Assembly: GCA_963692905.1 (NCBI GenBank)
Contig: OY843583.1
Span: 21,703 to 85,702, forward strand
DNA length: 64,000 nucleotides
Direction: 5' to 3'
DNA from: Spirochaetia bacterium
Lineage (GTDB): Bacteria > Spirochaetota > Spirochaetia > G963692905
Part shown: piece after piece, positions 33,250 to 38,364 of the stretch
Position numbering within the stretch: the first letter of the stretch is position 1
Layout of the letters: each line of letters opens with the position of its first letter
Position numbers and translations under genes: made by a program
The notes under the pieces: generated by a model
Seen by the model: only the letters and a program-made list of their open reading frames with translations
Databases searched by the model: none
What the model was told of the DNA's origin: nothing

Positions 33250-33290
33250 GCCATTTAATTATTAGATGTATATGAGGGTGTACAATGGTT
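33250..33290. repeat. Copy of dispersed repeat modules A+B (gccatttaattattagatgtatatgagggtgtaca).
   Basis: About 90% identical to 10549-10585. Confidence 0.8.
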
Positions 33291-33394
33291 GAAGAGTGAT
33301 AATAGCTTAACCATTAGGAAATTAAAAGAGAGGGCTGACCTCCTCTCTCTCCTCACTCCCGAAACTGTGCCACGGAGAAATGAGACTCGCTACA

Positions 33395-33424
33395 CAAAAA
33401 ATAGGGAGGGGTTAAACCCTCCCT
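33395..33424 (-). terminator. Intrinsic terminator for the paralog-1 lipoprotein gene (stem AGGGAGGG/CCCTCCCT, loop of 6 nt, then AUUUUUU on the minus strand).
   Basis: Hairpin and T-run read directly from the sequence. It lies 52 nt downstream of the gene end. Confidence 0.55.
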
Positions 33425-33475
33425 ATCCTATCTTTAGACGCGCTTCTCTACCTCTGGCCCTTTTGCGGCTATCTA

Positions 33476-34471
33476 TTATTGATAGCGGAGTGCATAGAGG
33501 GCATCATTTGTAAATCCCACCATATAGAGGGTGCTGCCAATGGCCGCTAGACCGGCTGGTTGGACTTCGCTCACGCCAAAGTTGGTTGCACTGCCCACTT
33601 GGGTTGCGCTACCGGTAATAGTGTCTAGGGTAACCAGGACATCACTGGACGCCGCCGCCATATAGAGGGTGCCACCAATGGCGGCCAGGCCGGCAGGATT
33701 GTCTTCGCCCTCGCCAAATTCGGTTGCACTGCCTACCCGGGATGCCATACCATCGGGGGTCATATCAGCGGAGTCAATGTTGATGGTATAGAGGGCAGTT
33801 TGAGCCCGTCCTATCATATAGAGGGTGCCATCAATGGCGGCCAGGCCGGTTGGTTGGCCTTCGCCCACGCCAAATTGGCTTACACTGGCATCACTCACCA
33901 GGGTGGCTCTACCGGTAGTAGTATTTAGGGTATAGAGGACCGCTTGGCCCCATCCCGTCATATAGAGGGTGTCACCAATAGCTTCCAGAGCATATGGTGA
34001 GATTTCGCTCACGCCAAAGCCGGCGGGCGTATTTCCCACCTGGGTTGCTGTACCGTTATCGGCGGAGCCATCCTCGTCACTAATATCTAGGGTATACAGG
34101 ACATCATTTGTAAATCCCACCATATAGAGGGTTTCGCCGATGGCGGCTAGGCCGCTTGGAGCGTCTTCGCCCTCGCCAAATTGGTTGGCCCTGCCTATGC
34201 GGGTGGCCTCTCCTACCGCTACTTGCCCACAGCTTCTGCCAACTACATCAGTGGTGCCATCCAGTCTATAGAGCAGATTGCAGCTAGCACAGCGGGTTAG
34301 ACCATCGGCAGTGGCATCTCTGAGCGATGAGGCGCTGCCGTTGGCACAGGCATATCTATATTGGGATCCACCACCAGGACCTCCCCCTCCATTATTCGCA
34401 GCCGGACAGGCTACCAATACTACCAGGGCCACCAATACCATTAAGGCGATCCCCAGGGTGCCCCCAAGCAT
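33476..34471 (-). CDS. Repeat-containing lipoprotein, paralog 1. It has an N-terminal Cys-containing segment and six copies of a roughly 48-aa repeat (consensus ...FG.GE..P.GLAAIG.TLYM.G....LYT.N...G), which looks like a beta-propeller.
   Basis: Signal peptide with lipobox LVAC and a Gly-rich linker. The internal repeats are visible by eye. There is an RBS (AAGGGGAGG) upstream of the ATG. Confidence 0.6.
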   Translation of the reverse strand: MLGGTLGIALMVLVALVVLVACPAANNGGGGPGGGSQYRYACANGSASSLRDATADGLTRCASCNLLYRLDGTTDVVGRSCGQVAVGEATRIGRANQFGEGEDAPSGLAAIGETLYMVGFTNDVLYTLDISDEDGSADNGTATQVGNTPAGFGVSEISPYALEAIGDTLYMTGWGQAVLYTLNTTTGRATLVSDASVSQFGVGEGQPTGLAAIDGTLYMIGRAQTALYTINIDSADMTPDGMASRVGSATEFGEGEDNPAGLAAIGGTLYMAAASSDVLVTLDTITGSATQVGSATNFGVSEVQPAGLAAIGSTLYMVGFTNDALYALRYQ

Positions 34472-34536
34472 CCTCCCCTTAAGCGGGGAATGCGAGGAGC
34501 TGTGGTTCTCTCTCTGGCAAGTATTAAGAGAGCTTA

Positions 34537-35816: not shown

Positions 35817-35988
35817 AACAAATTTCCCCTTTTCTCTCTCTGGGTGCTTGGGGAGCGCTCAGTTACTCTGTACGCTCTCTCTTCCCTAAAAGGAAAGAGG
35901 GAGCGTATTTAATATTGTTACACATTTTTTTAAGGCAGGGCTTAGCCCTGCCCTTTTGTGGCTTAGCATTGGATAGCTATCGCCTTAT

Positions 35989-37389
35989 TCACGGTGCAGT
36001 GCGAATAACATAGAGTGCTCTATTGTCATTTCCAAGCATATAGAGAATAGTGCCAATCCCTGTCAATCCTTGTGGATCCTCCTCATTCACCATGCCAAAG
36101 CCGGCGCCTAATGAACCCACTTGGGCTGCTGTGCCGGTAGTAGTATCAAGAGTATAGAGACGGGCCAAACCGCCTCCTCTCGACAGATAGAGGGTGTTGC
36201 CCACCGCGCCAAGTCCGTATGAATTCAAAAAACCTCGGCCAAATCCTCTTGGGCCCACCCGGTATGCCATACCATCGGAGCTCCCATCAGTGGGATCAAC
36301 ATTGATAGTAAAGAGGGCATGTAGGCTCTCTCCCACCATATAGAGAGTGTTTGTGCTGTCAATACCGGCCAGTCCATCAACCAATCTTTCACCCACTCCA
36401 AAGCCGGCGTCCACACTGCCCACTCGCGTTGCAATACCATTAGTAGTGTTGAGGGTGTAGAGGAATGAAAAGTTTCCGCTTCCCGTTATATAGAGGGTGG
36501 TACCAAGCGCACCAAGTGCCCTGGGTTTCAATGTATTAGTAAGTCCTGTGCCTTGGCCAAAATTGATTGCGTTGCCCACCCGGTATGCCATACCATCGGG
36601 GCTCCCATCAGTGGGATCAATGTTTATGGTGTAGAGTGCACCTGTGTCAACTGAGCTTTGAGCTATCATATAGAGGGTGTCACCAATGGAGGTCAGGCCT
36701 CTTGACATTACAAGCCCCAAACCAAAACCTGCAGCAAGGTCACCCACTTGTCGTGCTTCTCCTAGTGGTACGGCGTTACAGGTAGTGCCCACGATCGGCG
36801 AGGTAGCACTCAGCTCATAGGTAAGATCGCACGCAGTACAGAACGTTTGACCCGCCATAGTAGGGGTCGCTGTGGATGGTGTGCCATTATCACAGCTGTA
36901 GTTCAAACGGTTACAGATCATACCAGCACCTCCGGCTGTCAATGTATAGCCAGTATTGCATGACATACAGTTTTGCCGCGCACTCCTGTCGAACATCATG
37001 ATTGTGCCGCTCACTGGCAATCCATTATCGCAGAGAAAAGGAAAATCAGTTGCACAGACGCTACCTGTCAACAGTGATCCCGTATCACAACTTGCGCATC
37101 TTTCAACATAATTATTGCCAGGAGGCATCCCGGTTTGGGGGACTCCGCCATCACAAGTATACTCAGTGCGGATATCACACCGATTATTGATTAATATGTA
37201 GGTAGAGTCACACGCTATACAATTCTCCCTATCCCTACTAGTGGTCGCGCCAGTAGCCTCCATTCCATTATTGCAGGTAAACGGGCGGGATGTAATGCCG
37301 CCACCAGGGACTGGGGATGGGGATGGGGATGGTTGACATCCTGCTATTACTAATCCTAATAGGATAGCCATTGTGACTATCTTCATCAT
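35989..37389 (-). CDS. Lipoprotein, paralog 3. It has four Cys-rich roughly 40-aa modules (CDNG.P....C..C..GY.L....C) followed by about seven copies of the same roughly 48-aa GLxxIGxTLYM...LYTxN repeat found in paralog 1.
   Basis: Lipobox VIAGC and a PSPSPSPVPGGG linker. The repeat is shared with paralog 1. A hairpin (GGCAGGGC/GCCCTGCC) lies 30-55 nt downstream of the gene. Confidence 0.6.
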   Translation of the reverse strand: MMKIVTMAILLGLVIAGCQPSPSPSPVPGGGITSRPFTCNNGMEATGATTSRDRENCIACDSTYILINNRCDIRTEYTCDGGVPQTGMPPGNNYVERCASCDTGSLLTGSVCATDFPFLCDNGLPVSGTIMMFDRSARQNCMSCNTGYTLTAGGAGMICNRLNYSCDNGTPSTATPTMAGQTFCTACDLTYELSATSPIVGTTCNAVPLGEARQVGDLAAGFGLGLVMSRGLTSIGDTLYMIAQSSVDTGALYTINIDPTDGSPDGMAYRVGNAINFGQGTGLTNTLKPRALGALGTTLYITGSGNFSFLYTLNTTNGIATRVGSVDAGFGVGERLVDGLAGIDSTNTLYMVGESLHALFTINVDPTDGSSDGMAYRVGPRGFGRGFLNSYGLGAVGNTLYLSRGGGLARLYTLDTTTGTAAQVGSLGAGFGMVNEEDPQGLTGIGTILYMLGNDNRALYVIRTAP

Positions 37390-37621
37390 ATTAAATCCCT
37401 TATTATATAATTCTCTAGAATAACTCCGGGTAGCTGAACCGCGCTAGTCATGCTATACATCCGGTCATACCCAAATGGCTTTACAATTATCTTGCACGTA
37501 TATCAATACTTCCCTTATCCATAATATCTATCCTCATGCATATAATATTATATTCAATAATTAAGAAATAATATGAGTATTTTTTTTAGGGGCTGACCTA
37601 CTTAAGCATTGTATGCAATTC

Positions 37622-38050
37622 TTAAGTAAGTATGGAGCGAAAAAGCAGGCTATCTAGCGCACAGATAGAGAAGTTAATAGAACACTTTGTGGTAGGCACT
37701 CCCGCCTGAAGCGCGGCACCGTTTTTGCAAAGTAAGCCGGAAGAGCGCAATTGCCCGGTATCACCGATTGTGTCAAACATCTCGGTAGTATAAGCATTAA
37801 TAATACCTCTTCCAGTAGTAGTGATACTGAAGTAATCGATATCAGAGCCGGTTTCGATTTTTCCCTCTATAGTAGATCCTGATGTTATTAGGGTTGTATC
37901 TGATTGGACATTGCCATAGTCATCAGTAGGAGGGTATCCCCCACAGGTAGCGAGAAAGAGGGCTACTCCTAGCCCTAAAGCTATAAGACCTAATATTACA
38001 AGGCTTAAGGACATAACTAGACCGTTTATCATTTTATTATTAGTATTCAT
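37622..38050 (-). CDS. Small hypothetical lipoprotein.
   Basis: Strong RBS GGAGGA 5 nt upstream of ATG (MNTNNKM), a hydrophobic signal segment and lipobox LATC. A Thr/Gly-rich mature part follows. Confidence 0.4.
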   Translation of the reverse strand: MNTNNKMINGLVMSLSLVILGLIALGLGVALFLATCGGYPPTDDYGNVQSDTTLITSGSTIEGKIETGSDIDYFSITTTGRGIINAYTTEMFDTIGDTGQLRSSGLLCKNGAALQAGVPTTKCSINFSICALDSLLFRSILT

Positions 38051-38364
38051 TTGTCCTCCATTTTGTCTTCCGTTTATCCTCCCCTTTTTCTTTCGTCTAA
38101 TCTCAATCATAAACTACCTCTTTTAATAACACTATTAGCTATGCAAGAATATACTATATATATTCAAGTATTTCAAGCTTTTTTAAGAAAAAATTTAGCA
38201 ATTATTCATATAAGTAGGCTCAACATTTGTTGATATATATTTAATAGGTATTTAATGGTACAGCTCTCCTAAACTGGCACAATGAGAGAGCGTAATCTGA
38301 AAAAGACTGCTTCAATTACTGAATATGATTGCCTAATTTTATAGCTATATGCTACAATTCTAGC

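Follow-up and report, generated by a model that had tools for sequence, protein, structure and literature searches.

Do conserved gene ends around unrelated mature domains mark a locus that varies the bacterial surface, and if so, by what mechanism? The question is raised by a lipoprotein locus in contig OY843583.1 of a Spirochaetia bacterium, an uncultured, probably host-associated spirochaete; the window denotes here the whole stretch of 64,000 nucleotides that was analysed, and positions given without another label are those of the window. Four open reading frames (ORFs), named A to D and all on the minus strand, occupy 33476-38110, and each encodes a hydrophobic N-terminus with a lipobox-like motif (LVAC, LVAC, IAGC and LATC, respectively; Table 1). 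The first-pass annotation, made from the letters of the window, had likened this locus to recombining surface-antigen cassettes and suggested surface variation by an undescribed family. We found that conserved ends around different mature domains are real and more general than the window, and that a role in surface variation is plausible because the dinucleotide tract of the locus belongs to the gene architecture. The mechanism that we favour is a different one: the genes probably undergo per-gene translational phase variation, by frame switching at a simple sequence repeat (SSR), together with gene conversion among paralogues, rather than forming a silent-cassette system.

The AG tract and the 5' region of gene A

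A (CT)34 tract had been placed beside gene A. The tract is indeed perfect, and no other dinucleotide run in the 64-kb window exceeds 5 units, but the tract is not merely adjacent. On the coding strand of A, an upstream ATG (34686) is followed by an open frame MILHNPISFLLGENERVKERLSTRKTLQ, (AG)34, VSSLNTCQRENHSSSHSPLKGR and then the annotated ATG at 34471, and a Shine-Dalgarno sequence (SD) precedes the upstream ATG (Table 1). Read through, the AG tract encodes (Arg-Glu)n. With (AG)34, the upstream ATG and the lipoprotein ORF stand in different frames, and tracts of 33, 30 or 36 units bring them into one frame; when the tract was edited in silico, (AG)33 gave an uninterrupted A precursor, and (AG)34 and (AG)35 ran into a stop a few codons past the tract. 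The repeat is thus long and perfect and sits where a change of one unit would alter the frame, provided that the upstream ATG is used. As judged from this arrangement, the (CT)34 tract probably lies inside the transcribed, translated 5' part of A. Many paralogues are annotated with an in-frame extension of this kind, MILHNPISFLLGE..(RE)n..SSLNTCQRENH..SPLKGR, and such N-termini read '...CQRERERERE...SSLKTCQRENH..SPLKGRV-LWGTLG'; an example leader sequence is CAYTCCCCGCTTAAGGGGAGG, with AAGGAGG-N9-ATG upstream of it.

DNA was inspected for eight family genes, namely A of the window and seven in L012-L016, which come from two relatives. All eight carry AAGGAG(G)-N7-12-ATG, and the promoters sit upstream of this upstream ATG. 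In the sister metagenome-assembled genome (MAG), the order is TTGTAC-17-TATAAT with an extended -10, a leader of ~100 nt, AAGGAGG-N7-ATG, (AG)n and the signal peptide. The putative promoter of A is analogous to this L012 promoter, and promoter and leader of A align base for base with the related L016 gene (TTGACA-17-CATACT). The architecture is conserved in at least three genomes, while tract length differs from one paralogue and one species to the next. In each of the three genes whose tract has 4 units or fewer, the upstream ATG is in frame (L015a, 0 units; L014 and L016, 4 units each), and the longer tracts are split, with the upstream ATG in frame in L012a (9 units) and L013b (17) and out of frame in L013a (13), L012b (20) and A (34). 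Across ~160 kb of DNA from the clade, every one of the five AG/CT tracts of at least 9 units occupies the homologous position, which falls between the upstream ATG and the hydrophobic region (h-region) of the signal peptide. Right after the AG tract, the two L012 genes also differ in a frame-neutral TCT (Ser) run, of five units at 10076-10100 and three at 11454-11472.

In the model that we propose, a typical family gene would consist of a 5' cassette, a passenger and, in A and B, a homologous terminator. The cassette would comprise a sigma-70 promoter, a leader of ~115 nt, a strong SD with the upstream ATG, the (AG)n extension, the LVAC signal peptide, a Gly-rich linker and at least one module with four cysteines (4-Cys module); the passenger would usually be a five-bladed DUF4394-like propeller and sometimes an RCC1, RTX-like or other repeat domain. 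Translation would begin at the upstream ATG, and slipped-strand mispairing would alter the number of AG units and thereby bring the lipoprotein ORF into or out of frame, so that the copies would switch ON and OFF independently of each other, like Neisseria opa and Helicobacter pylori hop/oipA. At (AG)34, A would be OFF, or at best weakly expressed from its internal ATG, and the loss of one unit would restore the frame. Segmental gene conversion would add a second layer of diversity by reshuffling signal-peptide types, Cys modules and propeller blades, and would occasionally set the 5' cassette before a different passenger.

Genes B and C depart from this design. Upstream of B lies a decayed family extension (Table 1), homologous to the in-frame extension of the paralogue P0007, and B itself has a normal n-region (MIRNK); having lost the upstream start and the tract, it would be expected to be expressed constitutively from its own ATG. 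C has no family 5' cassette, no SSR and an unrelated leader and signal peptide. Decayed AG remnants as in B, which are all that several paralogues hold as well, would also suit an ordinary expanded family without programmed variation, whose similar ends would stem from recent duplication and concerted evolution and whose AG tract would be a neutral microsatellite in a purine-rich leader; reduced, host-associated genomes often gather repeats. We consider this improbable. Perfect tracts of 9-34 units recur at one exact position in two or more species, the ~160 kb examined have none elsewhere, and SD, upstream ATG and open frame are kept across diverged copies. Perfect dinucleotide runs of such length are intrinsically unstable, owing to slipped-strand mispairing, so their persistence suggests selection.

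Start-codon evidence

Whether the tract is translated depends on which start codon is used. It might instead be an element of the 5' untranslated region (5'-UTR), with the lipoprotein starting at the internal ATG or GTG and the upstream ATG opening a short leader ORF or lying unused; the length of the tract would then modulate elongation of transcription, the stability of the mRNA, or coupling and re-initiation, in a graded rather than ON/OFF manner. Several features are in keeping with this: the internal ATG of A is preceded by TAAGGGGAGG, most type-1 paralogues (signal-peptide types are described below) have M or V at the internal position, the internal ATG of the L012 genes is followed by Arg-Arg, and at (AG)34 the upstream ORF ends 64 nt before the internal ATG, which could permit re-initiation. 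However, L013a, L013b and L016 have no in-frame ATG, GTG or TTG that would yield a signal peptide except the upstream ATG, and at the position of the internal start P0027 has Thr, P0032 Ala and P0043 Gly, so that no start codon stands there. In the sister species, moreover, a perfect SD precedes the upstream ATG and none the internal ATG. In type-1 genes, the n-region owes its positive charge solely to K-G-R, which lies upstream of the internal Met, so a type-1 signal peptide begun at that Met would have no such charge there, and the short-tract copies are in frame in three of three cases. Taken over the family, the 5'-UTR reading seems unlikely to us, though less so than an ordinary expanded family; it is possible for the type-1 genes of the source species, which keep an internal start after AAGGGGAGG.

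Other observations also weigh against frame switching from the upstream ATG. Most type-1 copies of the source species keep an internal ATG or GTG preceded by AAGGGGAGG, and tract-independent expression is therefore possible. About 15 of the 41 source paralogues are annotated in frame with the upstream start, which is near the 1/3 expected by chance, as the 5'-UTR reading would also have it, and does not discriminate between the models. The promoter of A fails a strict consensus scan, the last base of its -10 being A, and an assembly may misstate the exact length of a dinucleotide run of 68 nt. Finally, an Arg-Glu-rich extension of 40-100 amino acids before a lipoprotein signal peptide is unusual and may not suit export. 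Frame switching as we propose it presupposes that the source species starts translation at the upstream ATG, that tract length is in fact unstable and that the extended precursor can be exported, all of which we infer.

Gene family and passengers

Gene A is 100% identical to P0001, encoded on a contig of 1,881,732 bp, and this 1.88-Mb contig holds at least 41 propeller paralogues; the further genomic copies that had been expected do exist. The same contig encodes an RTX-type protein, P0090, that has only the N-terminal region in common with the family. More members were found in MAG contigs of the ENA, including sister spirochaete MAGs, one of which also has an RCC1 lipoprotein with a family-type extension. 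A profile search of genome contigs added a distant relative labelled 'MAG: Leptospiria bacterium', with ~50% identity, larger proteins and no AG tracts. P0089, with a lactonase-like repeat, lies on a 16.1-kb contig of a close relative; it is not a paralogue of the source genome, although it was counted as one in the mosaic and signal-peptide alignments. Between A and the lactonase-like gene (P0089, L016), DNA identity is 82.5% over 274 nt; the alignment begins just past the tract, reaches to the first Cys module and does not continue further. The data support a family of modular paralogous lipoprotein genes, with one conserved 5' end joined to propeller, RCC1, RTX-type and lactonase-like passengers.

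All four ORFs of the locus encode a hydrophobic core followed by a lipobox of the form [LVI][ASTVI][GAS]C, and the lipobox Cys is nearly invariant in the family alignment; by signal peptide and lipobox, A, B and C are predicted lipoproteins (Lgt/Lsp substrates). Two types of signal peptide recur in the family: type 1, MLGGTLG..LVALVVLVAC, as in A, and type 2, M(I/L)RNKIFK..GALGAILGALVLLLVAVLVAC, as in B. Nearly identical signal peptides had been reported for A and B; this holds for the last 8 residues, VLVACPAA, while the n- and h-regions belong to the two different types. An identical 25-mer spans the lipobox in both genes (34397-34421 and 35721-35745), including all synonymous sites of 8 codons. 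The other resemblances between A and B were borne out: a local alignment of the terminator regions over 71 nt scored 71 (shuffles 16 +/- 2.4), and the upstream regions scored 42 (shuffles 15.6 +/- 2.3), a homology that is real but patchy. The two terminators are true shared 3' ends, and their homology fits an origin of B by passenger replacement in a family gene.

Gene models of the family are inconsistent. Some paralogues are annotated with implausibly short N-termini ('MVLVAC...', 'MALVVLVAC...'), a pattern that would agree with an upstream start lying out of frame in these copies; other models have long N-termini or are split, and knowledge of the architecture would mend the annotation. The ORF at 56961-58058 (plus strand, 365 amino acids) is not a lipoprotein and matches nothing significantly in Pfam. 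Its sequence is 86% identical to residues 1-342 of P0067 (575 amino acids, same genome), a part that is there fused to a family propeller, and the family propeller has therefore also been shuffled onto non-lipoprotein partners. In the literature searched, we found neither this family nor its organism described, and none of the papers covered mentions DUF4394.

Mosaic paralogues and the cassette analogy

The paralogues are mosaics. Overall identity between P0002 (type 1) and P0022 (type 2) is 69%, and yet they have 93 identical consecutive amino acids, from the lipobox through two Cys modules; with identity spread uniformly at 69%, the chance of such a block would be ~0.69^93, or 1e-15. Another 36 paralogue pairs have identical blocks of 25-88 amino acids, and pairs with identical blocks are 58-84% identical overall. 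As far as sequence comparison can tell, these mosaics show past segmental exchange, not programmed switching.

Mosaics, and conserved 5' ends (with terminators in A and B) around unrelated passengers, are also what cassette-type recombinational antigenic variation would produce, as in Borrelia vsp/vlp/vls, Treponema pallidum tprK or Mycoplasma vsp, where conserved ends would target cassettes into an expression site. Truncated family fragments of the source genome, P0337 (102 amino acids) and P0338 (62 amino acids), could be taken for silent donors: both run from the leader through the lipobox into the beginning of the first Cys module before a frameshifted tail sets in, and decay to pseudogenes or frameshifts introduced by sequencing may account for them. 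When the hypothetical in-frame leader peptide served as a query, it matched only these two fragments. We nevertheless regard a cassette system as very improbable, and the analogy drawn in the first-pass annotation did not survive. The inspected copies are complete genes: A, B and seven related genes each have their own start and signal peptide, with promoter-like sites in most and terminators in A and B. Copies in the sister genome are scattered singly or in pairs among housekeeping genes and operons. Segmental gene conversion has yielded mosaics, but no arrangement of one expression site with silent donors, nor any silent-cassette array, was seen among the inspected copies, and the truncated fragments known are the two. 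The ORF list and repeat analysis revealed no invertase or recombinase gene and no inverted-repeat switch at the locus. An invertible promoter or other site-specific recombination switch, of the Mycoplasma bovis vsp or Mycoplasma pulmonis vsa type, was considered separately and ruled out, flanking inverted repeats and a recombinase being absent at the locus.

Dispersed intergenic element

An 85-bp block in the 3' flanks had been counted among the shared ends. The repeat exists, at 32940-33014 and 34857-34934, and contains the identical 30-mer that had been reported; however, it is not a cassette end of the family. It lies ~460 nt below the stop of A and ~190 nt below that of B, and it belongs to an element of ~240 nt with a third copy by an unrelated gene and a first beside tRNA-Gln (Table 1). 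The element is composed of terminator-like hairpins, a conserved core (TTTTATTGTAGGCAGAAACGCAGCTCTCCG), CTCTTTATTTTCC and a promoter-like end, and all three strong copies end in a -35/-10-like pair that points at the next gene, namely tRNA-Gln, gene A and ORF 56961. We conclude that it is a dispersed intergenic element of this genome and not a cassette boundary. It has no match in Rfam and was not found in the sister-MAG loci or in L016. When both strands were folded, the predicted structures were neither consistent nor unusually stable (z-scores -2.2 to +0.2), and the idea that it encodes a small RNA was dropped on this ground. Two metagenome scans, with a conserved 21-mer of the leader and a 28-mer core of the element, returned no matches.

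Mature domains

That the mature parts of A and B are unrelated was borne out, A being a propeller and B an RCC1 protein. By self-comparison, A and C have a repeat of 46-54 amino acids in common. Against Pfam DUF4394 they score 19.8 and 17.8 bits, below the gathering cut-off of 29.6. Several paralogues and distant relatives score above it, so A and C count as divergent relatives of the DUF4394/DUF6923 propellers, not certified members. An AlphaFold2 (AF2) model built from a 34-sequence family alignment had a mean predicted local distance difference test score (pLDDT) of 84.5, and more than 90 over the repeats, and consisted of five four-stranded blades; in the secondary-structure list of the model, N-terminal strands apparently complete the last blade. 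Foldseek matched the model to the NHL, PknD, Pizza and glutaminyl-cyclase propellers (E 1e-10 to 1e-8), and the propeller-like fold suspected for A, with C sharing it, was in this way upheld. When the family profile was run against 1.84 billion proteins, it matched 2214 representative clusters, many of giant multi-domain proteins. The best nine matches were scanned, and all nine carried DUF4394, eight of them above threshold. Because the top matches carry this domain, the repeat of A and C is a divergent branch of the known, uncharacterised DUF4394/DUF6923 propeller group, and for the repeat the label of an undescribed family has to be given up. The likeness to DUF4394/DUF6923 proteins lies in the repeat, by a weak match, and in the AF2 propeller fold, whereas three features set this spirochaete clade apart, namely its lipoprotein leader, the Cys modules and LRYQ at the C-terminus.

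Between lipobox and propeller stands the Cys module of ~40 amino acids, with the pattern C-x17-22-C-x2-C-x10-15-C. Four such modules had been noted in C; C does have four, A also carries one, and the paralogues have one to four. The modules have no Pfam match, and in the AF2 model of C, where the propeller is confident, they have a pLDDT of 40-55, so that we make no claim on their fold. In L012, two tandem family genes are followed by a DsbA/thioredoxin-family gene (12855-13637), which may relate to disulfides of the four cysteines or may be a coincidence.

Gene B matches PF13540 (RCC1_2) with 101.8 bits (cut-off 22; 1.2e-29; 3 stretches) and PF00415 with 52.8 bits (cut-off 21.7). The RLD profile is covered at positions 141-283 of 363 with 89.6 bits against a cut-off of 150, short of a complete seven-bladed propeller, and the protein of 230 amino acids is short beside its RCC1 homologues, most of which have 300-400. 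Two 68-nt stretches of B (35192-35259 and 35588-35655) are 98.5% identical, against ~71-75% for the surrounding repeats, which suggests recent intragenic recombination, and B, with ~3.5 RCC1 blades, may be a deletion product. An RCC1 lipoprotein of the sister species (L015, 14242-14619) is likewise short, at 125 amino acids. RCC1 repeats are not rare in bacteria, as had been assumed: a search of bacterial genomes and metagenomes gave 2227 matches, including Myxococcus, Actinobacteria and Flavobacteriales. In the window, an ankyrin-repeat protein (60052-61116, plus strand; Ank 1e-31) adjoins a HAMP-adenylate/guanylate cyclase (58072-59784, plus strand). Ankyrin and RCC1, both eukaryote-like repeats, suggest a host-associated lifestyle for this 1.88-Mb genome, and both, together with the propeller, are candidate host-interaction factors.

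Comparison with known systems

SSR-driven surface variation is well known in a few pathogens, such as Neisseria, Haemophilus, Helicobacter, Mycoplasma and Treponema pallidum; to our knowledge, it is hardly documented in uncultured symbionts or Leptospira-related spirochaetes. The opa genes of Neisseria, ~11 complete loci, have CTCTT repeats in the region coding for the leader peptide, and repeat number sets the frame (PMC3745409). The likeness to the present family is that of a dispersed multigene surface family with complete copies and an SSR in the sequence encoding the export leader. Paralogous opa genes recombine with each other. However, the opa products are beta-barrel outer-membrane proteins, whereas the spirochaete family consists of lipoproteins, and the opa pentamer lies in the hydrophobic core of the signal peptide, whereas here a dinucleotide encodes (Arg-Glu)n in an extension ahead of it. 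The present family also differs in having at least 41 copies and one leader for unrelated passengers, and its switching is so far a proposal made from sequence.

In H. pylori oipA, CT repeats in the 5' coding region cause ON/OFF frameshifts by slipped-strand mispairing (PMC10564699). A CT/AG dinucleotide tract in the 5' coding region of surface paralogues is what hop, oipA, sabA and babB have in common with the genes studied here; the H. pylori products are outer-membrane proteins, not lipoproteins, and lack a conserved upstream extension. In H. pylori, only a few genes of the family have a tract, and the tracts are usually shorter. For Mycoplasma gallisepticum vlhA (pMGA), the likeness is a large family of variable lipoproteins in a small genome, each gene having a conserved 5' region with an SSR of variable length (PMC6258824). 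There, a (GAA)n tract ~40 nt upstream of the transcription start renders a gene active at exactly 12 repeats (PMC6258824), thus acting on transcription, whereas the tract described here lies downstream of promoter and start codon.

Among spirochaetes, T. pallidum tpr genes have poly-G in the tprE/G/J promoters, a CT-repeat frameshift in tprA and recombination among paralogues (PMC3656149). They resemble the present genes as a paralogous spirochaete surface family with SSR-dependent expression and recombination among paralogues, but the two families have no relationship in sequence or fold, tpr comprises ~12 genes, and tprK has dedicated donor cassettes. The tprA tract has 3-4 units at positions 706-711 of the locus and does not lie in a 5' N-terminal extension. 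Borrelia vsp/vlp and vlsE are likewise spirochaete lipoproteins with conserved ends around variable middles. They use one expression site and silent, promoterless cassettes on linear plasmids, a layout that was looked for here among the inspected copies and not found.

SSR phase variation is known as a principle. Unusual here would be the (Arg-Glu)n extension before the signal peptide, the very long dinucleotide tract and the portable leader on unrelated passengers. Tentatively, and with less confidence than we place in frame switching as such, we suggest an unrecognised design of export leader, in which a strong upstream start and an SSR-encoded (Arg-Glu)n before a lipoprotein signal peptide would form a portable, independently switchable cassette, present at ~40 loci, serving several unrelated passengers and giving a combinatorial surface repertoire. 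If the switching mechanism is right, a small genome would spend over 2% of its genes on a single family of switchable lipoproteins, which would indicate strong, fluctuating selection from host or phages; the surface repertoire of an uncultured spirochaete with a 1.9-Mb genome would be on the scale of the Mycoplasma and Neisseria systems, and the family would be a clean natural example of a reusable leader cassette recombining onto different passengers.

Locus layout and neighbouring genes

The features of the locus are collected in Table 1. Its flanks are housekeeping genes, with TilS-like, Pth and L25 ORFs and tRNA-Gln (32819-32891) on one side and an alpha-amylase-family gene on the other. 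NCBIfam gave no match for A, B, C or D, and an Rfam scan of the window found two tRNAs and nothing else.

Table 1. Features of the lipoprotein locus and copies of the dispersed element in the window
Feature	Position	Strand	Description
Gene A	33476-34471	minus	331 amino acids from the internal ATG; LVAC lipobox (..VVLVAC); order: signal peptide, Gly-rich linker, one 4-Cys module, five-bladed beta-propeller, C-terminal LRYQ
Gene B	35124-35816	minus	230 amino acids; type-2 signal peptide ending VLVACPAA (..AVLVAC); ~3.5 RCC1 repeats
Gene C	35989-37389	minus	466 amino acids; different lipoprotein signal peptide, ..VIAGC; four 4-Cys modules; same five-bladed propeller as A
Gene D	37622-38110	minus	162 amino acids; small probable lipoprotein, ..FLATCGG; unrelated to the family
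Putative sigma-70 promoter of A	34838-34810	minus	TTGCCA-17-TATACA; tentative assignment, read from the sequence
Leader of A	34687-34809	minus	~115 nt; conserved GGGAGCTAT..CTCC segment (L016 alignment)
Shine-Dalgarno sequence of A	34696-34702	minus	AAGGAGG; 9-nt spacer to the upstream ATG
Upstream ATG of A	34684-34686	minus	
N-terminal-extension coding region of A	34472-34683	minus	From in-silico tract edits
(AG)34 tract	34537-34604		(AG)34 when read on the minus (coding) strand, (CT)34 when read on the plus strand; TRF: 34 copies, 100% matches
Intrinsic terminator hairpin of A	33401-33426	minus	Followed by TTTTTTGTG on the minus strand
Intrinsic terminator of B	34986-35008	minus	Homologous to the terminator of A
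Decayed family 5' extension upstream of B	35817-35905	minus	No upstream ATG, in-frame stops, (AG)4 remnants only
Element copy 1	32894-33132	minus	nhmmer E 5e-75; ends in promoter-like sites (32930-32901, 32919-32891) directly upstream of tRNA-Gln
Element copy 2	34796-34970	minus	nhmmer E 5e-42; between terminator of B and promoter of A; has the 30-mer
Element copy 3	56706-56964	plus	nhmmer E 3.5e-81; 78% identity over 218 nt to copy 1; directly upstream of ORF 56961-58058
Weak element copy	33311-33385	minus	nhmmer
Weak element copy	56559-56651	plus	nhmmer

Gene D has no Pfam or NCBIfam match; in its 5' coding region, a 23-nt unit occurs twice in tandem (38050-38096, 79% identity). Elsewhere in the window, a non-coding stretch of ~740 nt (55965-56700) holds the direct repeats AGATCTACGCCAT(A/G)GA and CATAGA(T/C)CT, noticed by eye near 56245-56195 and 56075-56045.

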